A stretch of 64,000 nt of DNA from a virus. The stretch covers positions 32,001 to 96,000 of the IMG/VR virus record IMGVR_UViG_3300023174_000077; one strand, written 5' to 3'. Below, piece by piece: positions 28,468 to 41,605 of the stretch (the stretch's first letter is position 1; every line of letters begins with the position of its first letter). A model generated the notes under the pieces. That model ran no database searches and was not told the DNA's origin. It was given only the letters and a program-made list of their open reading frames with translations. The position numbers were made by a program, and so were the translations under genes.

Positions 28468-29346
28468 TTAGATGAGTTTATTTTTATTTAAGAAACCATA
28501 TTTTTTAAATAATTTATATGTTAATATTTTATACCACGGCAAATCACTAACAAAATTAATATTAAGCTTATCATAAGCATATTTAGCATTTTCCGAACAA
28601 TTGTCTATTTTACCAGACCATTTTATAACTTCCTGATTGATGTTGATATTTGATTCGACTAAGAATACCCCATTTCCATTTAATTCTGCTGAACGTCCTA
28701 CTAATATAGTATTATCAGATTGATTGGTATTGACGAAAACTTTAAAATTATTTAATGTGCCTACCTGAAATATTTTTTGTTCAAGTTGGAAGGTGTCACT
28801 GACTCTGCTTAGTGTTGTGTAACAAAAATTTGCCGAATCTTGAATTATTGGTAAAAATTTTGGACTTATTACTATAAATGTTGCAGCTCCAAGACGAGAA
28901 TTTACAGCTATAAGATTTGAAAGAATTGTAATTCTTGTTATTAAGCTTCTAAATTCTGTTGCATCATCTTTATTTGTATCATTTATTAAAATATCGGCAT
29001 CTCCTTTAATCCATTTTGTAAATTTAGTCCAAATGTTAGTTTGTTCTGTTCGTGTATTTTTATATGATTTATCATTTTTATCTGCTAATTCTACATATTT
29101 ATCATATAATTGTTGTGATAAATTATTAATTAAAATTGATTTACTAGATTTAACAAAAGTATATTGCTCACATTTAAAAGTTTTTTTATTAATACCTAAA
29201 CTAATAGTTGAATAAGAAGTAGTTTCATCTTTTGTGATTGATTGATCAATATAACTGATTTGAAATTCCGGTTTATCTGTTTTATAAATAGCTGCTGTAT
29301 TTAAAAATGACGAATTTAGATAATTTGTTTCATTATTTTTATTCAT
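28468..29346 (-). CDS. degenerate major-capsid (gp23/gp24)-like paralog
   Basis: SNLIAVNSRLGAATFIVISP...VGTLNNFKVFVN...ILVG resembles gp23 IARQTGRGxGNFII...AGVLGGxYxVYID...TVG. Confidence 0.6.
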   Translation of the reverse strand: MNKNNETNYLNSSFLNTAAIYKTDKPEFQISYIDQSITKDETTSYSTISLGINKKTFKCEQYTFVKSSKSILINNLSQQLYDKYVELADKNDKSYKNTRTEQTNIWTKFTKWIKGDADILINDTNKDDATEFRSLITRITILSNLIAVNSRLGAATFIVISPKFLPIIQDSANFCYTTLSRVSDTFQLEQKIFQVGTLNNFKVFVNTNQSDNTILVGRSAELNGNGVFLVESNININQEVIKWSGKIDNCSENAKYAYDKLNINFVSDLPWYKILTYKLFKKYGFLNKNKLI

Positions 29347-29353
29347 TTTATAT

Positions 29354-30013
29354 TTATTTTTTTCGTGGTTTAATTATTTCATCGATAATACCATATAATT
29401 TAGCTTCGGAAGAAGTCATCCAATAATCTCTATCAGAATCTTTTTCAACTTTTTCAAATTTTTGTCCAGTATTTTCAGAAATAATTTCATATAATTCTTT
29501 TTTAAGAGAATTTATTTCTTTTGCATCAATTTCTATATCTGATGCCTGAGCGTATCCAGTATATCCAATCGGTTGATGTATCATTGTTCTCGCTCTTTTT
29601 AATGATTTTCTTTTTCCTTTTGTTCCCGCACATAATATAACAGCTGCCATTGACGCTGCTAATCCAGTATTTATTGTTATTACGTCTGGACGTATAAATT
29701 CCATTGTATCTAATATACCAAGTCCATCATATACAGAACCACCTGGTGAATTAATATACATTTTTATATCTTTTTTATGATCCAATTGTTCTAAATAAAG
29801 TAATTGGTTTTTAATTAATTCGGATGTATAATTATCAATTTCGTCATTGAGAAATACAATTCTATCATTAAGTAATTTGGTATAAATATCTAACATAAAT
29901 CCTTTTTCATTATCAATAATAAAATGGGAATTATTGTGAATTGTTTGTCTAATGACACTTTCAGGAACTTTTGAATAAAGAAATTTTTGATAATCTGATG
30001 CTAATTTTTTCAT
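29354..30013 (-). CDS. clpP: ATP-dependent Clp protease proteolytic subunit
   Basis: YINSPGGSV, AASMAA (Ser), MIHQP (His), DRDYWM (Asp). Confidence 0.95.
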   Translation of the reverse strand: MKKLASDYQKFLYSKVPESVIRQTIHNNSHFIIDNEKGFMLDIYTKLLNDRIVFLNDEIDNYTSELIKNQLLYLEQLDHKKDIKMYINSPGGSVYDGLGILDTMEFIRPDVITINTGLAASMAAVILCAGTKGKRKSLKRARTMIHQPIGYTGYAQASDIEIDAKEINSLKKELYEIISENTGQKFEKVEKDSDRDYWMTSSEAKLYGIIDEIIKPRKK

Positions 30014-32724: not shown

Positions 32725-33213
32725 ATGTTTAACAGAATTAAAGAAGATTTTTTAAAATTAAAGAAAATTTTTAAAGCAAAGAATGAACATTTTCTAAAAA
32801 CAGATTTTGTTTTTTATAAAAGGTGGAAATTATTAATAAAAATTTTAATTTTTTTTAATAAAAATTATGTGGCTTGTGAAATAGCTCGTAAAAAATTTAA
32901 AGTTCATAGAAATTTTATAGTTATCGGTTTAAAATGGAATGGTAAAAATGTTAAAAGAAGAGCCATTGGTTATGCAAAAGACTTTGTTAATTCAAATAGA
33001 GATGCAAAGTGCATTTATTGCGAAACAAAATTAACAGAGGAAAATGCCACAACTGATCATATAATACCAATTGCTTCCGGTGGTAATAATTGCAAAGTTA
33101 ATTTAATAGTATGTTGCCAGCCTTGCAATTCCGATAGAGGAACAACACCGTTTAAAAAATATCTAAAACAAAAAAATATAAAATATAAAAAAAGTAAATA
33201 TACTTTTATATAA
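32725..33213 (+). CDS. HNH endonuclease
   Basis: CIYC...TTDHIIPIASGG...NLIVCCQPCNSDRG. Confidence 0.85.
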   Translation: MFNRIKEDFLKLKKIFKAKNEHFLKTDFVFYKRWKLLIKILIFFNKNYVACEIARKKFKVHRNFIVIGLKWNGKNVKRRAIGYAKDFVNSNRDAKCIYCETKLTEENATTDHIIPIASGGNNCKVNLIVCCQPCNSDRGTTPFKKYLKQKNIKYKKSKYTFI

Positions 33214-34431: not shown

Positions 34432-35682
34432 ATGAAATACTTAATAGATTTTACTGAAATAAATGAATTAAAAAAATCATTTACTTATATAGATAGAACT
34501 TCTACACCATATACTGAAAAGGGTGATTTAACACATTCTCGTTTTTCTGAATTTTCGTCAAAAAATAGTCAAGGATGGGAATTAATGGGTATGCAAGAAA
34601 TAGATAAAGACGGATATGAAATTAGTGACAAATATATAAAATTTGATAAATTCAGTTATGAATATAATTTATCCGAACCAGAAGTCAATATAGTTAAGCA
34701 TGTTATAACGGCTGCATTAGGTGAAATAGCAAATCAAAATTGGATAGATGCTTTTAAATTTGAATCTAATAAAGCTTATGCTACAATTTTATTGGGTAAA
34801 ATAGGATTTGTATTTATAAAAGATAATCAAAGTAAGTATTTCACACCAATTTTAAGATATCCTAAGGGCAGAGAAGGAAATACATTTTGGTTAAATGCTG
34901 AATTTGAAAAAGGTGAACAATGGGCTAAAACCGTTATTGTCACAAAACCAGATGTTTCCGATAATGAATTGGAACATAATGGTATAGCATTATTACAAGC
35001 AACTTATAGAAAATTATGGGAAACTGAAAACGAAAAAAGAAGAAGGGAAGAAAGACCTTTATTGCCTGAAACTGCAATTAAAAAAGTGAATGCAGCTGCT
35101 TTTGTTAAATCAAATACAATAATTAGAAATACAGGTGAAAAACAATTTTTTATAGTATACGTTCAAGGTTCAAAATATAACCCAATTGATTTTGCTAGAA
35201 AAGCTTGTGGTGCTAATATTGAATTAACTTCATATACAAGAATTCCAACCACATTACCAGCATCAACTAAAAAAGAAAAAGATTCAAAAAAGATAAATTA
35301 TTTTTATTTTGATCCAAATGATGATCCAAAAAATCAATATTTGTTAAATAAATATAAGAATGATCCAGCACAATTAAAAATAGTTAAAGCAAGTATTGAT
35401 AGATTAAAACTTATCTTATATAAGGATAACAAGACAGAAAAATTTAAATATGCAGTTTTAAAACGTCCTTTAATTACTAAAAAAAGTTATCCTTATAAAG
35501 AAATTGAAATAAGTGATCCTATGATAAAAGGAAAAGAAGTTAAATCAATCATTGAATTAAAATCTGGTGATAAATTAAGAATACCTGTTATTGATGAAAA
35601 AAATCCTGGTAGAATTACATTTAATGAAGTGACTATCGGGCCAATAGATTCTAAAGATAATAAAAGAGTATCTGTATATTAA
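34432..35682 (+). CDS. hypothetical protein, putative internal head protein
   Basis: MKYLIDFTEINE N-terminus, ATATATA upstream. Confidence 0.55.
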   Translation: MKYLIDFTEINELKKSFTYIDRTSTPYTEKGDLTHSRFSEFSSKNSQGWELMGMQEIDKDGYEISDKYIKFDKFSYEYNLSEPEVNIVKHVITAALGEIANQNWIDAFKFESNKAYATILLGKIGFVFIKDNQSKYFTPILRYPKGREGNTFWLNAEFEKGEQWAKTVIVTKPDVSDNELEHNGIALLQATYRKLWETENEKRRREERPLLPETAIKKVNAAAFVKSNTIIRNTGEKQFFIVYVQGSKYNPIDFARKACGANIELTSYTRIPTTLPASTKKEKDSKKINYFYFDPNDDPKNQYLLNKYKNDPAQLKIVKASIDRLKLILYKDNKTEKFKYAVLKRPLITKKSYPYKEIEISDPMIKGKEVKSIIELKSGDKLRIPVIDEKNPGRITFNEVTIGPIDSKDNKRVSVY

Positions 35683-36209
35683 TCCTTTAATATATCATTA
35701 ATTTTTTTATCACGCATATAAGCTGTTAAATTAAAATCAGGAAAATCATTAGCATATCTATTTTTATCTATTTTCATTACATTTTTGTAAATTGAGGCAT
35801 GAAAATCGCTTAATGAAATTAATTCAAAATTATATTTGTAAAATTTTTGTGTTCTAGTTAATTCAGTTTGATAAAAAAAATCTTTGATTATAACAGAATT
35901 ACCGTTGTTTAAACAAAAAGAGAATAATTCTCTAAATTTTTTATTATGAGAGTTTCTATCAAAAGATGCCGAATTTTTTTGTAAAAAAGTATTTAATTCT
36001 ATACAAAATATGCTATTTTGAAAATCAAAATTATTATATTCTCTAATAAATGGTTTAATGTTATGTTTAAGTATATCTTCTAATAAAAAATCAAACAATA
36101 ATTCATCAGTAAATGACATATTAAACATATATATACCACTATGTTTATCTAAATAATTTGCTATTTCTTTTGCTATATCCATAGTTAATTTTTCTTTTCT
36201 GTAAACCAA
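35679..36209 (-). CDS. hypothetical protein with C-terminal RDKKINDIL motif
   Basis: ORF track; motif shared with neighbouring mini-genes. Confidence 0.55.
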   Translation of the reverse strand: MVYRKEKLTMDIAKEIANYLDKHSGIYMFNMSFTDELLFDFLLEDILKHNIKPFIREYNNFDFQNSIFCIELNTFLQKNSASFDRNSHNKKFRELFSFCLNNGNSVIIKDFFYQTELTRTQKFYKYNFELISLSDFHASIYKNVMKIDKNRYANDFPDFNLTAYMRDKKINDILKD

Positions 36210-36469
36210 ATATCATTTGTATAATAATTCGAATATGTTGCTCCAAAATTAATATTTTCTTTCATACAAGTTTTATCCAAAAGTTTTTGAAGAGGGATAT
36301 CTTCTTTATAATTGAATATTAATTTTGATAATTCTTTCTCTGCATTTTTTGCACTTATATTACCAACTGGTATTGTAAATTTTATAATTTTTGGATTTTC
36401 TGAAATTATTTCAGATTTAATTTTCTTCTTCCAAAAAAAGTTTTTTAATTTTGTTAATAGTTTTTTCAT
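36185..36469 (-). CDS. mini-protein resembling a portal (gp20) fragment
   Basis: KFTIPVGNISAKNAEKELSKLIFNYKEDI...NDIWF vs gp20 VxYxDxGNxPxxKAxxxxxxxMxxxK...EDYW. Confidence 0.5.
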   Translation of the reverse strand: MKKLLTKLKNFFWKKKIKSEIISENPKIIKFTIPVGNISAKNAEKELSKLIFNYKEDIPLQKLLDKTCMKENINFGATYSNYYTNDIWFTEKKN

Positions 36470-36471
36470 AG

Positions 36472-36807
36472 TTATTTATACAATTGTTCCACAATATATT
36501 CAGAATACTCTATAGATGTATCTATTTGATTGCTAATATAGTTTATATAATACATACTATATTCAAAAGTTTTATATGCCTCTGTTTCTTCCATTTCTAA
36601 TGGTATATATTCTGTGTCGTTTAATATAGCATCAATTTTCCTATCTCTATTTATGATAGTCATTTCTCTTTCAACCTCACCCATAGTGGCTGGGTCTATG
36701 CTCATACTATATTTCCCAGTCATCCCATTTTTGGTTGTTAAAGTCTTCATCGGAATAGTCTTCTTCTTCATTTTCTTTTTGTTTTTTCTTTTGTAAAGAA
36801 CTACCAA
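36472..36807 (-). CDS. mini-protein with INRDRKIDAIL motif
   Basis: True start probably inside the overlap with the polymerase 3' end (for example MTGKY). Confidence 0.55.
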   Translation of the reverse strand: MVVLYKRKNKKKMKKKTIPMKTLTTKNGMTGKYSMSIDPATMGEVEREMTIINRDRKIDAILNDTEYIPLEMEETEAYKTFEYSMYYINYISNQIDTSIEYSEYIVEQLYK

Positions 36808-38255
36808 ATATATCTAATACAACAGAAAGTCGTTTTGTTATTTCTGGAAGTCCCAATGGTTCGATAATAGAATTAATTGGTGATAAAATACACTTATCAA
36901 ATTGTTCATCTAAATCAATTTCAGGAGCAAATTCAATAGGATAAGAACCACGATTAAATGCAAATACAGAATTCATTTTTTTATCTTTGCAGTAATAATA
37001 CTTAATTTTAGAACCTGATTTTAAAAATTCATATTTAAATTGTAAATCTTTATTTCTATGTAATAACCAATTATAATACGCTGATGCTTTTACTGCAAAA
37101 TGTGCTCCATTTACAAATACTAATTTATTTTTATCATCTAAAACTTTTTCATTATAATTAGAACAAGAAGATTGCATACTGATTTCATCAATCCGATCAG
37201 GTACACATAAATCAAATTCTTTTTTAAGATTTTTAACCAATTTGAGCAATTCACGAATGTTAAATGTATCTGGATGACTAAATAAATATTTAATGATGTC
37301 CACAATTTTATCTCTTGCAAAAGATGGAGTTGATCTTCTAACAAGTTCAACACCTTTTGGATAAATATAATTTAATCTTTCATATGGGATGCCATCTTCA
37401 AATACAATATGTTGAATATATTTCTTTTTAGCAATATAAATAACTGATTCGCTAATTCTTTCTAATTCAAAATCTTCTTTATTTGAAACGCCATAACTTT
37501 CAGCATATTCTTCTAAACATTTTTTGAAATATCCAGCATATCTATAATAGTCAAGACCATGTATAAAATCTAATTCATGAGCCCAATTCCATTTAAGTTT
37601 TTCTTCTAAATTATTATCTTTAATAAAAGTTTCAAAATTACGATTTTTAATCCATTTACCATCAACGATAAACATATCTATATCTTCAATATTTTGTATA
37701 TCTTCTAATTTAGAATAAACACCTAAACAATTTGGATTATCTGATGCAATTTCTTCTCTACCATGTAGAATTATATGAGCTTTTGTTATTTTATTTAAAT
37801 TGGAAAAGAAAAGATTTTTCCAATCTGAATGTGTAATAGCTGGTTTGAATGATACGAATAAACTATCAGTATCTGCATAAATACTAACTGGTTCTTTTTT
37901 TTCGTTAATTTGTTTTATATTTCTAATACAAATCTTTTTATGTAATTCGGTATCATTATGCCATTGATTATACCAATAATCTTCATTAACACGATTCATA
38001 GTTTTTGTTAAATCTCTACCTTGAGCCGTAATTGAAGAAGCCACATGATTATTAAACAAGACGAAATAGGACGCAGCGAAGGCGCCATATGATCCATTCA
38101 ATACTAATTTTAGTTTTATTACCCCCAACTAATTTTTTAGTTGGGGGTTAAAAAAGAGCGAGCTGTAAGGCATTATAATAATCTGCCTCTTTTTTCAACT
38201 CGCTCGCTTTATTTTTTAGTGACTCTAATTCAATTAATTTTTCTTCTTTTGTCAT
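36707..38255 (-). CDS. family B DNA polymerase, C-terminal subunit (gp43B-like), interrupted by a 43-nt coding gap
   Basis: 38255-38154 encodes MTKEEK...YYNALQLAL; 38110-36707 encodes KLVLNGSYG...ITAQGR...YADTDS...KKKY...KGVE..RRST; joining them restores motif B QxALKxxxNxxYG (predicted 501 aa). Confidence 0.85.
38111..38153 (-). other. 43-nt coding gap, candidate translational bypass element
   Basis: mRNA: CUU [UUU UAA CCCCCAACUAA AAAA UUAGUUGGGGG UAAUAAAA CUA] AAA; in-frame stop, 11-12 bp hairpin, Leu codons on both sides. Confidence 0.7.
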
Positions 38256-38329
38256 AGATATTGTATAGATTTTTGTTAAAAAGTTGTTAAAAAAGTCGTA
38301 GGGCGTTATGATAATTTTATATATAATAT

Positions 38330-39094
38330 ATGAAAGAAAATAAATATTATATTTATGCCTATTTAGATCCTTCTAAACCAATTCAAAAAACTTATGAAGA
38401 TTTTTCATTAATATATGAACCTTTTTATATAGGTAAAGGTAAAGAAGGTAGAAAATTAGTTCATTTAAAAGATTATAAATTAAAAAATAAAACGCATTTG
38501 TCTAATAAAATTTTAAGCATAAGGAATAATGGTTTAGAACCATTTATAGTGGAATTATATGATAATTTATCAGAAGAAGAGTCTTTAATTATTGAAAAAA
38601 ACTTAATTTCTATTATAGGTAGAAGAATACTAAAATCAGGTCCTCTTGTAAATATAACTGATGGTGGTGAGGGTGTTTCTGGGCTTAAACATACATTCGA
38701 ATCTAGAATTAAAATGTCAAATAAAGGCGAAAATCATCCAAATTGGAATAAGAAACTATCAGAAACAACTTGTAAGAAAATATCAGAAAAATTAAAATTA
38801 AATAATCCTATGAAAAATCCAGAAATTTCTGAAAAAGTAAGATTAAAAAATATAGGAAGAACTCCTTGGAATAAAGGTTTATCCACACCAAAAGATATTT
38901 GTAAAAAATTAAGCGATAAAAAAATAAAATATTTTAATATACAATTAATATCAAAGAAAGATAATACAATACAAACATTTTATAGTATATATGATGTTAT
39001 GTCTTTTTTAGGAAAATGCTATCGTTCAGTCTATTTATACCTTCAAAAAAACGAATCCAAAGATTATTTTATCAAATATGAAATAAAAAACTGA
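38330..39094 (+). CDS. GIY-YIG homing endonuclease, free-standing
   Basis: YYIYAYLDP...FYIGKGK..R, IEKNLI, LVNITDGGEG, NUMOD3-like NHPNWNKK, TPWNKG. Confidence 0.9.
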   Translation: MKENKYYIYAYLDPSKPIQKTYEDFSLIYEPFYIGKGKEGRKLVHLKDYKLKNKTHLSNKILSIRNNGLEPFIVELYDNLSEEESLIIEKNLISIIGRRILKSGPLVNITDGGEGVSGLKHTFESRIKMSNKGENHPNWNKKLSETTCKKISEKLKLNNPMKNPEISEKVRLKNIGRTPWNKGLSTPKDICKKLSDKKIKYFNIQLISKKDNTIQTFYSIYDVMSFLGKCYRSVYLYLQKNESKDYFIKYEIKN

Positions 39095-39097
39095 AAA

Positions 39098-39598
39098 TTA
39101 TTCGTGAAGATTGACTGGAGTTCTCATTTCAGTAATAGGTATTTCAACATTTTCAATTTCAAATAAGTCTTTTAAGGCAGATTGATAGTTGGTAAATAAA
39201 TTTAATTTTGTAAATTTGGATGAAATTTGCCATAATGGAGTTTTATTGTTATTTAATACTAAAGAATCAGAAGTCATATTTAAATTTTTGAATTTACCTT
39301 TTGGTGAAATATAACCTATTTTTTCTGGCATAATTAAATCTCCTAAATGTTGTTTTAAAATATAATAATTTCCAGTAAATAATACTTCATATTGATTATT
39401 TTCCCCAATTCTAATTTTTTCTATTATAGCCATGTAGATTTTTCTTTTACCATCTTCAAAAGGATTGCTTAAAATAAAAACACAACCACCTTTAATTGGA
39501 TCACTTGAAGCGATGTGCATTGGTTTAAATGGATGTTTTGATTTATAAAGATGTTTATAATTTTCGTTAAATATGTCGTAATTAATTAAATAATACAT
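39098..39598 (-). CDS. hypothetical protein, putative internal head protein
   Basis: MYYLINYDIFNE N-terminus, late-like promoter. Confidence 0.55.
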   Translation of the reverse strand: MYYLINYDIFNENYKHLYKSKHPFKPMHIASSDPIKGGCVFILSNPFEDGKRKIYMAIIEKIRIGENNQYEVLFTGNYYILKQHLGDLIMPEKIGYISPKGKFKNLNMTSDSLVLNNNKTPLWQISSKFTKLNLFTNYQSALKDLFEIENVEIPITEMRTPVNLHE

Positions 39599-39621
39599 AA
39601 AGTATATATTATAGATGAAAA

Positions 39622-39951
39622 TTAATCTTCTTTAGTTTTATCATCGTATTTAAAATCTAAATAAAATAATTTACCACTTGGGCCTGACATTGGTTTTTTT
39701 ATTGAGTTTAAATACTCTTTATATTCTTCTGTATCTTCTATTTTTAATTCTTCATAAGGATCATCAAATAGAATTGAATCTATTTTTCTATCCCTATTTA
39801 TTGCTATAACTTTATTTTTAGCAATTTCTAATAATTTGGAATCACCATCTGCAATTGTTGATGCTGCAACTTTCCTAACAATAGGTAATATACTTGAAAA
39901 TGAGCTATTTGTTGCGGTAAGTGTATTTGTCGGAGTATTTGATATTAGCAT
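39622..39951 (-). CDS. mini-protein: major-capsid N-terminal fragment with inserted NRDRKIDSIL module
   Basis: LPIVRKVAASTIAD-[insert]-PMSGPSGKLFYLDFKY vs gp23 VRRxxPxLIAxD..VQPMxxPTGxxFxLxxxY. Confidence 0.65.
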   Translation of the reverse strand: MLISNTPTNTLTATNSSFSSILPIVRKVAASTIADGDSKLLEIAKNKVIAINRDRKIDSILFDDPYEELKIEDTEEYKEYLNSIKKPMSGPSGKLFYLDFKYDDKTKED

Positions 39952-39967
39952 ATTCTGTTATACAATT

Positions 39968-40291
39968 TTACAAGCTTCTTCCATCTTTTTTCCATTTTTT
40001 TTGATTTTCCTCCGATAATCTCTTATATTCATCAGTATCTTCTATATTTGTTGCTGTAAAATCTTTATCATATAATATAGAATCAATTTTCCCTTCTCTA
40101 TTTTTAGCAGTTATACTTGCAGCAAAATTATCAAACATTATAGTATTTAGGATATCTTTATCAATTTCTTCTTGAAATATTCTTGCGAGTTCCGTTTCAA
40201 CATCTATACCACAATTTTGTTTTATATCATCTATTTCTTCTCTTGTAATCGAAGCTGTTATTCCTAAAATATTATTCATCGTCATCATCAA
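39968..40291 (-). CDS. mini-protein: major-capsid internal fragment fused to NREGKIDSIL module
   Basis: ITASITREEIDDIKQNCGIDVETELARIFQEEIDKDIL vs gp23 KAxxSxELAQDLxAxHGxDAxAELxxILxxEIxxEI. Confidence 0.6.
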   Translation of the reverse strand: MMMTMNNILGITASITREEIDDIKQNCGIDVETELARIFQEEIDKDILNTIMFDNFAASITAKNREGKIDSILYDKDFTATNIEDTDEYKRLSEENQKKWKKDGRSL

Positions 40292-41060
40292 ATGTTTGTT
40301 CGAAAGATAACATCAAATTAGATATATTATCTTTTACTAAAATAAATGTTTCAAACATATAGAAATCAATTAAATCCATATCATCATTTATGTTTGAAAG
40401 GTATTTTTTATTAAATACTATTTTTTGATTAATTGAAGAATCAATTTCCCCAACCAAAAGTTCCCATTTAGAAGTTTCGCTTGCTGTTATTTTTCCATCT
40501 TCGATATCAATAGATAAAATCTTTTCTTCTGAATCAATTGCCGATAGTTTCTTAATATCATGAAAATCTCTTTTTGTAATTTGAAAATTATAATTAGCAT
40601 TATCTATATCTGTCCTAGCTTCAATTGCATCTGAATTTAAATCTCTAATTAAAGAATCTTCACCACCAATAGAATTTATTTTTAATTTACCATTTGTGAA
40701 TTGAGAAGAACGAATTTGCATTACATCGGCATTATCATTATGTGGTTTATATATGATATCCATTTTAACTTGTGTATCAATGTTAAAAAATTTGAGACTT
40801 TTAATTAATTTTGGAGCATTGACTATGATAAAATCAAATATAGATTCTTCATTAAAATTATCAAAATAATTTATAGTTGGTAATATATAAGATTTTAAAG
40901 CCAAAACTGCTGAATCATTGGCTTTCATGGAATACATTAAAATTTTATCAGATTCTATTTTAAGTTTTACAACAGGATTTATATTTGATAAATCTTGAAT
41001 TTTATTTATAAAATCTGGAAAATAACGCTTATTTAAGTTAATTGACATTTTTTTACTCAT
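40272..41060 (-). CDS. probable DNA polymerase sliding clamp (gp45-like)
   Basis: 262-aa acidic protein with a two-repeat alpha/beta pattern in the replication cluster; inference from size and context. Confidence 0.5.
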   Translation of the reverse strand: MSKKMSINLNKRYFPDFINKIQDLSNINPVVKLKIESDKILMYSMKANDSAVLALKSYILPTINYFDNFNEESIFDFIIVNAPKLIKSLKFFNIDTQVKMDIIYKPHNDNADVMQIRSSQFTNGKLKINSIGGEDSLIRDLNSDAIEARTDIDNANYNFQITKRDFHDIKKLSAIDSEEKILSIDIEDGKITASETSKWELLVGEIDSSINQKIVFNKKYLSNINDDMDLIDFYMFETFILVKDNISNLMLSFEQTFDDDDE

Positions 41061-41089: not shown

Positions 41090-41605
41090 TTAATTCTTTG
41101 ATAGAAAATTGTATAACTCAATTGTATTCTTTACTTGATAGCCAATATCACTTAATAATTTAACTAATGATCTTAAATGTTCTATATGTGTTTCGATTAA
41201 TTCGGTTGCTCTTTTAGCTTCTACTAAGTGTCCGTCTATTATAGATGTCATATGACTATTTGAAACTTTACCATTAACATTTAATGCTGATTTACCAAGA
41301 GCATACCAAACAATTTTATCTTGTTCTTGTCTTTTATATTTAACTTTTTCTTTGGAAAGTTTTTGTAAAAAAACTGCAATTTCATTTTGTAATCTTTCTC
41401 TATGAACTAATGCATCAACCTGTAAATCAACTATTTTTTGTGCATTTTCTGAATTATATTGCAATTTAGCAATTTCTAAAATTGGTTGTATATCCCTTGT
41501 CCATTCTTCTCTTTTAACAGTGAAAAATTCCTCCATTCGATTATTAGATTCCTCTTTTTTGGCAATAGCTTCTAATTCTTCTTTTTCGTATAGGGTAAAT
41601 GACAT
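41090..41605 (-). CDS. helical protein, possibly UvsY-like recombination mediator
   Basis: Coiled-coil ending ..DIGYQVKNTIEL, similar to the UvsY C-terminus. Confidence 0.4.
   Translation of the reverse strand: MSFTLYEKEELEAIAKKEESNNRMEEFFTVKREEWTRDIQPILEIAKLQYNSENAQKIVDLQVDALVHRERLQNEIAVFLQKLSKEKVKYKRQEQDKIVWYALGKSALNVNGKVSNSHMTSIIDGHLVEAKRATELIETHIEHLRSLVKLLSDIGYQVKNTIELYNFLSKN

Follow-up and report, generated by a model that had tools for sequence, protein, structure and literature searches.

P4 Sid, SaPI CpmB and PICI Ccm are small or truncated capsid-binding proteins that alter assembly, and Ccm is itself homologous to the major capsid protein (MCP). All three are satellite products that act on the helper phage, and none consists of conserved-motif fragments joined to a common module. 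In T4, gp24 is an MCP paralogue encoded in the same genome, and it is a complete HK97-fold vertex subunit. For the T4 portal protein gp20, where the clip alone covers residues 279-358 of 524, excerpts of PMC4493910 state that a 24-residue peptide (residues 288-311) binds the large terminase, gp17, and inhibits DNA packaging. A free copy of such a segment can thus act as a competitor. In T4 gp23, the 29-residue Gol region or, more stably, about 100 residues of the first quarter bind EF-Tu and trigger the Lit protease, and Gol is described as the most conserved part of the protein (PMC3014915, in part). According to sections of PMC9958956, the T4 prohead core contains several small proteins, for whose entry a targeting sequence of roughly 10 residues is enough, and the N-terminal propeptide region of the MCP lies inside the prohead together with the scaffolding core. 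In literature searches, no paper was found that describes genes made from capsid, scaffold or portal fragments such as those reported here.

The mini-genes A-D are located on the minus strand of a 122-kb virus record at the positions given in Table 1; the window is the 64,000-nucleotide stretch of this record that was analysed. The source is a huge gp23-type phage from lake water, with the uncultured phages LR745206.1 and LR756502.1 (634-642 kb) as relatives. All four are intact accessory genes under selection. Their products have a size of about 85-110 aa, and each is built of one or two short stretches that copy a head-morphogenesis protein.

Table 1. Features of the mini-gene region, with positions counted from the first letter of the window.
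Feature	Position	Strand	Description
ORF A	39968..40291	-	107 aa (106 from first ATG); MCP strand and start of the spine helix, then shared module
Module in A	40004..40141	-	core NREGKIDSIL ... EDTDEYK; module HMM E 1.3e-20
Remnant, out of frame, of B's ancestral 5' end	39944..39995	-	ATG-GAA-AAA start and TEYA-coding stretch; by eye against the long homologue P0003
ORF B	39622..39951	-	109 aa; piece of MCP N-arm/first P-domain strand, module, piece of the next MCP strand
Module in B	39703..39846	-	core NRDRKIDSIL ... EDTEEYKEY; module HMM E 3.6e-23
GIY-YIG endonuclease gene	38330-39094		
ORF C	36472..36807	-	111 aa from first TTG; module and a tail copying the 14-residue repeat of the protease-scaffold
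Module in C	36562..36696	-	module HMM E 4.3e-21
ORF D	36185..36469	-	94 aa; portal strand, clip tip with helix, return strand; module absent
ORF E	35679..36209	-	176 aa, no known family; tag RDKKINDIL at about 35688-35714, two residues before the stop
HNH endonuclease gene	32725-33213		

An MCP HMM was built from 7 full-length gp23-type capsid proteins, and a portal profile was built from two huge-phage portals. Among the 916 small ORFs of the 122-kb record, B (E 1.7e-10), A (E 2.7e-5) and D (E 1.1e-5) were the sole significant matches. An earlier note on this DNA had assigned gp23-like segments to B and A and a portal segment to D, and the profile comparison confirmed significant capsid and portal similarity for all three. 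With blastp against the 264 large ORFs of LR745206.1, the best match of A and B was the MCP, that of C was the protease-scaffold frame beside the MCP, and that of D was the portal. The copied pieces represent the motifs that are conserved best in gp23-type MCPs and portals.

The match of A to the MCP HMM covered positions 359-407. A also matched the PHROG major head protein (E 1.8e-4) and Pfam Gp23 (PF07068; E 1.6e-4, profile positions 150-199), where its 21.6 bits lie below the curated cut-off of 24.4 expected of a working Gp23 capsid subunit. No match to Pfam Gp23 was obtained for B, C or D. Six homologues of A were identified among 11 candidates, one of them with a precomputed PF07068 domain. 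The start of A overlaps the end of an upstream 262-aa ORF by 20 nt, A and B are separated by 16 nt, and no terminator-like site was found between 39600 and 41100.

B matched the MCP HMM in two pieces (positions 67-95 and 101-122). In full-length IMG/VR MCPs these flanks adjoin, with about 6 residues in place of the 48-residue module of B. Both B and its long relatives match the first quarter of a gp23-type MCP, including the most conserved N-terminal stretch. In a profile alignment, the flanks of B fall on this stretch of T4-type gp23, which, going by residue numbers, is probably Gol itself. The stretch is split by the module in B, and Gol in T4 is part of the full capsid protein rather than a gene of its own. 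The second segment of B, PMSGPSGKLFYLDFKY, shares 14/16 residues with the MCP of L058 and equally 14/16 with MCPs that IMG/VR lists for other gp23-type phages; only 8/16 are identical in the MCP of the closest relative, G001. For this segment, the nearest relative's MCP is a poorer match than the general gp23 consensus, and it does not simply track the resident capsid. Judged by its sequence, B is a 5'-truncated member of a mini-gp23 family with lengths of mostly 100-168 aa. The remnant of its 5' end, as read by eye, suggests that about 35-45 codons of a propeptide-like part were lost.

The MCP profile matches the chains of both gp23 and gp24. Unlike gp24, A and B, each of which spans about 50 of the roughly 600 profile positions, are unable to form the HK97 fold, as the earlier note had argued from their length. 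A complete set of N-arm, E-loop, P and A domains is absent from both, and AF2 models of a long B homologue and of a 250-aa fused form show helices plus low-confidence strands.

C yielded a blastp match (E 4e-5) to a 727-residue reading frame upstream of the LR745206.1 MCP. Its database gene has 83 aa (P0036 form) with a start near 36723. The portal profile was matched by D at positions 268-336, and the next best small ORF reached an E value of 0.43. D is 37% identical over 62 residues to the LR745206.1 portal, aligns with the G001 portal at 277-332 and resembles huge-phage portals closely (KFTIP ... WFPE). No match was found for D in Pfam and PHROGs, nor for the T4-type portal family PF07230 anywhere in the record at E<=10. 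The D family comprises 4 members among 12 candidates, all of which match the portal profile, and D differs from its three homologues by a 15-residue insert. D, at 94 residues, has none of the wing, stem and crown domains that a dodecamer requires; that it is too short for a portal subunit had been stated in the earlier note.

Aligned via the LR745206.1 portal, with the gp20 numbering anchored on N291, M292, R295 and K296, residues 34-57 of D correspond to exactly the range 288-311 of T4 gp20, for which terminase binding and packaging inhibition are stated in the excerpts cited above. The T4 peptide is a laboratory reagent, whereas D is a natural 94-aa protein with flanking strands. Only N291 of the four T4 contact residues is kept (N37, I38, K41 and N42 in D), and binding by D is putative.

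A module of about 45 residues is common to A, B and C (core NRDRKIDSIL ... EDTEEYK) and is missing in D. It is centred on NR-[DE]-x-K-I-[DE]-S-I ... E-D-x-E-E-Y-K, and the family is absent from the libraries. The module HMM detected at least 265 clusters (50% identity) at E<=0.001 among 1.84 billion representatives. Because A, B and C are seed members of the alignment, independent support comes from the 265 other clusters. The MCP HMM was also matched by 117 of the best 150 module clusters (103 with an N-terminal piece, 11 with a C-terminal piece, 2 with both and 1 with a spine piece). From the remaining 33 of the 150, 17 sequences were inspected, and scaffold-type repeats were visible in six or so of them. 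Among the best 150 of the at least 265 clusters, protein lengths ranged from 53 to 325 aa with a median of 116, and 4/150 exceeded 200 aa. The three module copies differ synonymously, with the same codon used for identical residues in 9/16, 9/12 and 10/17 cases. In AF2 models, the module forms a helix in a long homologue 76% identical to B (pLDDT 82-89) and in a 250-aa fused form (pLDDT 93-97); the MCP-derived strands were of low confidence, in contrast to the confident module helix. Across hundreds of clusters, the shared module links the mini-proteins to both MCP and scaffold pieces, and it speaks for head assembly no less than for immunity.

A 9-residue C-terminal tag is carried by dozens of other small proteins in the relatives. 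Four short tags were seen in the 122-kb record, a count that is not significant since the maximum of 300 shuffles was also 4. For ORF E, which ends in such a tag, no noteworthy match was obtained in Pfam, PHROG or NCBIfam. The T4 capsid-targeting sequence, the internal proteins and the core proteins gp67 and gp68 likewise represent small proteins with a short shared peptide linked to the prohead core, and there too one label is found on small proteins that otherwise differ. However, the T4 label is N-terminal, comprises about 10 residues and is removed by the prohead protease, whereas the mini-proteins carry a 45-residue internal helix or the 9-residue C-terminal tag (PMC9958956, in part, for T4).

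LR745206.1, LR756502.1, G001, G003, G004 and G005 each contain one full MCP and 2-6 fragment-level matches, and a full portal gene is present in 6/6. In LR745206.1, a long family member and the phage's own MCP have 40-42% identity over 111-124 residues (E about 1e-19). By such alignments, long family members are copies of the propeptide-like MCP N-terminus of their own clade. At the position of D, G001 carries instead a 149-aa ORF that includes a further MCP N-arm piece, and a D-type gene was found in only 1/5 related IMG/VR records. Such turnover between close relatives is more in keeping with accessory genes of an arms race than with core factors of assembly.

The neighbouring genes encode a UvsW-like helicase, a GIY-YIG endonuclease and the C-terminal part of a family-B polymerase, together with weak UvsY-like and primase-like ORFs, in agreement with the earlier placement of the mini-genes among replication genes. 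A, B and C gave pN/pS values of 0.53, 0.38 and 0.47, respectively, compared with 0.16 for the neighbouring 262-aa ORF, and at most 0.25% of 2000 bootstraps reached 1 for A, B or C. The mini-genes evolve fast, yet under purifying selection, and the neutral decay of pseudogenes that the earlier note had considered was not borne out. Homologues occur in many contigs, and even in relatives with as little as about 40% identity the frames are unbroken. Among the variants of A-D from other lake samples, the two clearest preserve the reading frame (D is shortened by 45 nt in one, B is extended by 9 nt in the other), and one low-depth contig has a 2-nt insertion at 36227, in the overlap of D and E.

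As the leading but still tentative explanation, we propose that the mini-proteins mimic interfaces, by which head nucleation and DNA packaging are restrained or steered in the phage's own cycle. Since the genes are tightly packed on one strand together with replication genes, expression ahead of the late head proteins is probable. The copied segment would be disordered alone and would bind whatever it contacts in the full-length protein. A-C would have the scaffold or an adjoining capsid subunit as putative partner, D would have the large terminase or the neck, and the module may dock to a common putative partner. Assembly would be affected by such contacts, and the same chemistry could poison co-infecting relatives. 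Several observations count against this explanation: the propeptide-like part, the likeliest region for scaffold binding, is gone from B, whose second segment also departs from the nearest relative's MCP; D lacks the module and D-type genes are rare; the mini-genes turn over between close relatives; and in G001 the mini-genes lie roughly 55-80 kb from the portal and MCP genes. A role as immune decoys, the main idea of the earlier note and still a live rival although we regard it as unlikely, would have the early-made mini-proteins occupy host sensors or EF-Tu that recognise short conserved capsid or portal peptides, so that the sensors would be blinded or blocked by the time the real late proteins are made. 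The choice of the most conserved motifs would suit such a role, as would the correspondence of B to the MCP quarter that in T4 binds EF-Tu and triggers Lit, the fast evolution and swapping of the genes between close relatives, and their probable location in an early operon. According to parts of PMC13581612, core phage proteins, MCP and portal among them, are sensed by many bacterial receptors. The same source describes that the MCP sensor Avs7 recognises the HK97 fold by shape, envelops it whole and buries 3,700 square angstroms, which a largely disordered 100-aa fragment could hardly imitate; the decoy idea would suit only a sensor that works at the level of peptides, of the Lit/Gol type. 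Avs2, named in the earlier note as a portal sensor, is probably not one, since a published abstract gives terminase as its target and the portal sensor is Avs4 in the cited parts of PMC13581612. Moreover, Gol-type peptides activate Lit rather than block it, as stated in excerpts of PMC3014915. Decoys would also leave unexplained the link of the module with scaffold repeats and with the clade's own propeptide-like MCP region, and a decoy should copy the nearest relative's MCP, which the second segment of B does not match.

Use as weapons against co-infecting phages appears rather improbable. Here, the fragments would act as dominant-negative caps and poison capsid assembly or terminase docking of gp23-type competitors, and the diverged resident proteins would be spared. 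The packaging inhibition by the T4 portal peptide (excerpts of PMC4493910) is in line with this, as are the 14/16 identity of PMSGPSGKLFYLDFKY to other gp23-type MCPs and the higher score of B with an HMM of other phages' MCPs (24.6 bits) than with a huge-phage HMM (12.6 bits). Across the family, however, the reverse is found, with 63/92 mini-proteins scoring higher with the huge-phage MCP HMM, and D resembles huge-phage portals so closely that it would hit its own portal partners too. We likewise give little credence to packaged core or cargo proteins, in which the copied segment would serve as an address into the prohead core and the module, after later release or injection, as the working part. 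In long B-type proteins the N-terminus is still propeptide-like and close to the one of their own MCP, scaffold repeat units occur in C-type proteins, and the short targeting sequence of the T4 core proteins (parts of PMC9958956) offers a precedent; yet the genes lie among replication rather than late genes, and B of this phage lacks the propeptide-like part. Non-functional debris of recombination or homing-endonuclease traffic, with head-gene pieces at ectopic sites read as ORFs by chance, is very improbable. The two endonuclease genes nearby and the decayed 5' end of B would agree with it, as would a small GIY-YIG-like ORF that follows the pair in L003 and L004, as seen by eye. The debris reading is largely refuted by the intact frames in relatives, pN/pS below 1 in nearly all bootstraps for A, B and C, the in-frame state of the two clearest variants (set beside the one low-depth contig with its 2-nt insertion), the at least 265 clusters and the synonymous differences between module copies. 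A more speculative and unlikely reading is a display system, in which conserved virion-protein epitopes (capsid N-arm, spine helix, C-terminal strands, scaffold repeat and portal clip) would be presented on a common helical handle. The handle would dock to one hub that also reads the 9-residue C-terminal tag, and the hub would be either an organising centre that gathers head components for giant-capsid nucleation or a protease/unfoldase that removes what the epitopes capture, host sensors included. In both cases, self-mimicry would underlie a regulatory layer that has not been described so far.

Among the hundreds of uncharacterised small genes of huge phages, one sizeable class, spanning at least 265 clusters at 50% identity, has a recognisable building rule, a head-protein piece plus a shared helix. 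If they are interface mimics, the products would serve as naturally occurring competitive inhibitors, or else as adaptors, in capsid nucleation and DNA packaging, with a bearing on the sizing and timing of capsids for >500 kb, and they could supply peptide probes for capsid, scaffold and terminase contacts. As decoys, they would be the first counter-measure against peptide-level sensing of structural proteins, a sensing now known to be widespread in bacterial immunity.

In a genome-wide Gp23 search, matches were obtained only for A (18.3 bits) and for a 292-aa ORF at 28468-29346 (40.2 bits), which is a half-capsid paralogue.

Because the standard libraries detect little in the mini-genes, clade-level profiles were built. 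The sole capsid match in these libraries was that of ORF A, with Pfam Gp23 at E 1.6e-4, which is below the cut-off, and with the PHROG major head protein at E 1.8e-4. No family was found for ORFs B, C and D in the Pfam or PHROG searches; the matches of B to Flu_PB2 (E 0.019) and of D to phrog_14545 (E 0.086) were discarded as chance-level. A profile of the gp23-type major capsid protein (MCP HMM) was made from seven full-length sequences, two from huge phages and five other gp23-type sequences from IMG/VR, and a portal HMM from two huge-phage portals. Among the 916 small ORFs of the record, the MCP HMM matched B at E 1.7e-10 and A at E 2.7e-5, with the next best ORF at E 0.61. The portal HMM matched D at E 1.1e-5, with the next best at E 0.43. 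The profile comparison with capsid and portal was thus significant for all three ORFs, far beyond chance, and bears out the claim of an earlier note that they are mini-genes made from capsid and portal fragments.

When the 264 large ORFs of LR745206.1, a huge-phage relative, were searched by blastp, A and B had the MCP as top match, and D had the portal (37% identity over 62 residues). The top match of C was the frame that immediately precedes the MCP gene (E 4e-5). This frame, at 198486-200666 of LR745206.1, is 727 residues long, or about 707 aa if counted from its first Met. At the N-terminus there is a weak match to the T4 prohead protease family (Peptidase_S77, 17.4 bits; cut-off 27), after which come about twelve tandem 14-residue repeats and a long acidic tail region. 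The frame looks like a fusion of protease and scaffold. The C-terminal end of C is a copy of the 14-residue repeat unit. In five full-length IMG/VR MCPs both flanks of B occur next to each other, with about six residues between them; B is hence an MCP stretch with a 48-residue insert. A split capsid gene, intein or intron was rejected: A is first on the transcript yet copies the later part of the MCP, relatives also hold a complete MCP, and no splicing motifs were seen.

The B-family profile had no match to PDB sequences at E<=10. Searches with A, C and D by tblastn against 50,697 GenBank phage records gave nothing significant; the best matches were to the Pseudomonas phage pf16 head protein for A (E 0.7) and to uncultured huge phages for C (E 0.1) and D (E 0.02). 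A match of A in Cellulophaga phi4:1 (E 5) was dropped, as it covers two unrelated annotated genes. For D, a protein-atlas look-up gave no usable feature match. Literature searches, with supplementary files outside their scope, returned no description of such mini-genes. They are likewise not described in the available parts of PMC13728456 and PMC7162821, or of the context literature on phage heads and defence.

The source record has 122,094 bp, of which the window is bases 32001-96000, and its completeness is 22% by CheckV. The G+C content is about 25%. The DNA runs containing this stretch are labelled as lake water or freshwater; no RNA run was listed as containing it. The nearest named relatives are the "uncultured phage" genomes LR745206.1 (634,780 bp) and LR756502.1 (642,428 bp). 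According to the available part of PMC7162821, every genome larger than 634 kb in its data set falls in the Mahaphage clade and has a predicted Bacteroidetes host; LR745206.1 and LR756502.1 are presumably among them. ORFs A to E lie in a densely packed run on the minus strand. The placement of A, B and D among replication genes, also claimed in the earlier note, was confirmed, the neighbors being a weak UvsY-like ORF and a family-B DNA polymerase of which the C-terminal part alone is present. The polymerase reading frame contains, close to its 5' end, a G+C-rich, terminator-like hairpin (38070-38087). For the 262-aa ORF upstream of A, searches of Pfam, PHROGs, NCBIfam and PDB sequences gave no match; a "clamp" label for it, drawn from its position, gained no support from them. 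A sigma-70 promoter scan found 54 sites, with 53.8 expected.

Features of the region around ORFs A to E (window positions)
Feature	Position	Strand	Remark
Weak UvsY-like ORF	41090-41605	-	family searches
262-aa ORF, no family, upstream of A	40272-41060	-	synteny anchor
ORF A	39968-40291	-	capsid segment
ORF B	39622-39951	-	capsid segments
166-aa ORF, no family, after B		-	ORF run
GIY-YIG/NUMOD3 endonuclease gene	38330-39094	+	upstream of polymerase part
Family-B DNA polymerase, C-terminal part	36707-38128	-	phrog_262 positions 516-839
ORF C	36472-36807	-	module + scaffold repeat
ORF D	36185-36469	-	portal segment
ORF E	35679-36209	-	ends in 9-residue tag

Homologues were found for B (16 among 23 candidates, with 11 more in small ORFs of IMG/VR contigs), A (6 among 11) and D (4 among 12). 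Most B homologues have 146-168 aa, and their N-terminus matches the propeptide-like start of the MCP of the clade to which they belong. For the long B member of LR745206.1, identity to its own MCP was 40-42% over 111-124 residues (E about 1e-19). The B of this phage starts downstream of the propeptide-like region, with an out-of-frame remnant of the old start at about 39944-39995; the short form also occurs in a 91%-identical homologue. In the compared relatives, which are complete or near-complete genomes, one full-length MCP was accompanied by several fragment matches: three and two small-ORF matches by Pfam in LR745206.1 and LR756502.1, and four, six, six and three in the IMG/VR records G001, G003, G004 and G005, respectively. 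Further MCP-fragment ORFs of LR745206.1 were detected with the HMM built here and blastp. Each of these six genomes has one full-length portal. D-type ORFs adjoin a B-type gene in LR745206.1 and LR756502.1, and among the five IMG/VR records one (G005) has a D-type ORF. G005 is a complete 640-kb relative with terminal repeats; its D-type ORF (621351-621530; L093 about 1423-1695), a 91-residue frame, lies 48 nt upstream of the full portal gene and outside the replication genes.

Several ORFs of relatives combine the pieces differently. A 96-aa ORF (L066) has the spine helix fused straight onto the N-terminal strand, a natural 250-aa ORF consists of a C-terminal-strand unit plus a long B unit, and an 84-aa portal-type ORF of LR745206.1 has two portal strands in reversed order with a tag-like motif between them. 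Such variant fusions show that the pieces recombine freely. In G001, the closest record, the 262-aa anchor ORF is 85% identical and A, B and C are retained. The slot of D is occupied by another ORF of 149 aa (L046 15744-16193), and the MCP N-arm motif in it, IKIAAQTIGLDL, is found in identical form in the MCP of G001. This suggests that fragment genes may be replaced cassette-like between relatives.

Nei-Gojobori dN/dS against G001, at dS near saturation, was 0.42 for A, 0.21 for B and 0.34 for C, with values of 0.08-0.10 for the polymerase, the UvsY-like ORF and the 262-aa ORF. Uncorrected pN/pS, with 2000 codon bootstraps, was 0.53 (0.37-0.81), 0.38 (0.27-0.52) and 0.47 (0.32-0.69) for A, B and C, and at most 0.25% of the bootstraps reached 1. 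The mini-genes are fast-evolving yet constrained. In the dN/dS check proposed in the earlier note, A, B and C therefore proved to be under constraint, with no neutral decay. Variants were seen in short, low-depth contigs from four DNA runs. A contig of another lake-water run carries a 45-nt in-frame deletion in D (window 36251-36297), which removes a 15-residue insert distinguishing the D of this phage from three database homologues. A contig from another sample has a 9-nt in-frame insertion in B, and one low-depth contig has 2 nt inserted at 36227, where D and E overlap.

A central stretch, here called the module, can be aligned between ORFs A, B and C and is absent from all full-length MCPs. 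A module HMM of 48 positions, built from 16 copies, matched 265 of 1.84 billion representative proteins at E<=0.001, 86 of them at E<=1e-10. The best 150 of the 265 have lengths of 53-325 aa (median 116), and 117 of these 150 are also matched by the MCP HMM (E<=0.01): 103 by an N-terminal piece, 11 by C-terminal strands, 2 by both and 1 by the spine helix. Among 17 viewed of the 33 MCP-negative proteins in the best 150, about six had visible scaffold-type repeats, one was of the spine-helix type and a few were weak N-types. The module is thus specifically tied to head-protein pieces, as it was found beside capsid or scaffold pieces in most of the listed proteins. When a long B homologue was looked up in a protein atlas, the nearest clusters were viral proteins of 127-148 aa, and in two of them 42-58% of members had a Gp23 match. 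In AF2 models, both with mean pLDDT of about 62-63, the module was predicted as a long helix (pLDDT 82-89 in a 154-aa homologue, 93-97 in the natural 250-aa fusion) followed by a short second helix, and the MCP-derived strands were of low confidence. Complex prediction for A with B gave scores of 0.12 and 0.00, where the mark is 0.32.

A shorter relative of the module core, with the pattern R-[DKE]-x-K-[IL]-x-x-[IL]-[LF], forms a 9-residue tag. The six-frame ORFs of LR745206.1 contain 41 copies, compared with 4.6 +/- 2.0 in shuffles, and 35 of these copies lie within 10 residues of the stop (0.6 expected), in small, otherwise unrelated ORFs. The present record has four matches, in A, B, C and the C-terminus of E (window 35688-35714); this count is not significant alone, because 300 shuffles also reached 4. 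A recent DNA repeat or in-frame mobile element was rejected as the source of the module, the three window copies having 66-72% DNA identity with many synonymous differences, and as the source of the tag, since the tag codons of LR745206.1 vary. From this variation in codon choice, the tag was taken as a peptide-level signal. A clamp-binding peptide, a Clp degron and a membrane-targeting helix were considered as candidate meanings of the tag.

The copied segments were placed on T4 structures. The single MCP of LR745206.1 had no PDB match at E<=0.001; T4 gp23 was reached only with the seven-sequence MCP profile, which matches T4-type gp23 chains at E about 1e-36. This profile places the flanks of B on a conserved N-terminal stretch of mature T4-type gp23. 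These flanks may be the Gol stretch itself. According to the available part of PMC3014915, Gol is the most conserved part of gp23 and spans 29 residues within the first quarter of the protein, and EF-Tu binding is more stable with about 100 residues of this quarter. The T4 MCP propeptide-like region is located inside the prohead with the scaffolding core (PMC9958956, available part). The portal of LR745206.1 aligns with T4 gp20, with an offset that reproduces the published contacts N291, M292, R295 and K296. Through this alignment, residues 34-57 of D correspond to T4 gp20 288-311. In the accessible text of PMC4493910, the 24-residue gp20 peptide 288-311 binds the terminase gp17 and inhibits packaging, and the portal clip (279-358) is the attachment site of terminase and neck.

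Tentatively, and with less than even confidence, we favor the reading that A to D are interface mimics modulating head nucleation and packaging, with the module as a common handle. The mini-proteins would bind the partners of the segments that they copy, such binding would alter head nucleation and packaging, and the module may be recognized by some reader. This reading was adopted because the pieces derive from portal, scaffold and MCP, which co-assemble at head start, because the long B forms follow the propeptide-like region of their own MCP, because the module occurs almost only beside head-protein pieces and because the copied pieces are predicted to lack order in the unbound state. Against it stand the position of the genes, which lie amid replication genes and well away from the head module, the gene swaps between close relatives, the loss of the propeptide-like part from the B of this phage, the second segment of B, which is 14/16 identical to the general gp23 consensus versus 8/16 to the nearest relative's MCP, and D, which has no module.

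These same points keep alive the reading of A to D as immune decoys, which we nevertheless regard as unlikely. Gol provides a precedent within gp23 (PMC3014915, in part), and the available sections of PMC13581612 describe many receptors that sense core phage proteins, but also a fold-level recognition by Avs7. It is decidedly improbable that A to D act as weapons against co-infecting phages, and equally so that they are packaged core or cargo proteins. Mimicry of foreign instead of own MCP was considered and not adopted, as the result was mixed: the second segment of B is closer to the MCPs of other phages, whereas 63 of 92 family members score higher with the huge-phage MCP HMM. That A to D are mere debris is very improbable, A, B and C being under constraint.

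A larger capsid-related ORF was also observed in the window. This 292-aa ORF (28468-29346, minus strand) matches the C-terminal half only of a gp23-type capsid (Pfam Gp23 E 1.9e-10, above the cut-off, profile 212-306; MCP HMM built here, E 6.6e-15). Directly upstream is a ClpP-family gene (29354-30013, minus strand; Pfam E 2.3e-72; PHROGs head maturation protease E 4.6e-39). Relatives also have half-capsid ORFs, of about 240-280 aa, and in two database proteins of 323-325 aa the module is located at the N-terminus of such a half-capsid. An MKYL-type N-terminus (MKYLKYFES, MKYLIDFTE, MKYLRKYNE) is common to several unrelated ORFs (window 27537 and 34432; L003 5534 and L004 5462, in stretches of relatives' DNA).
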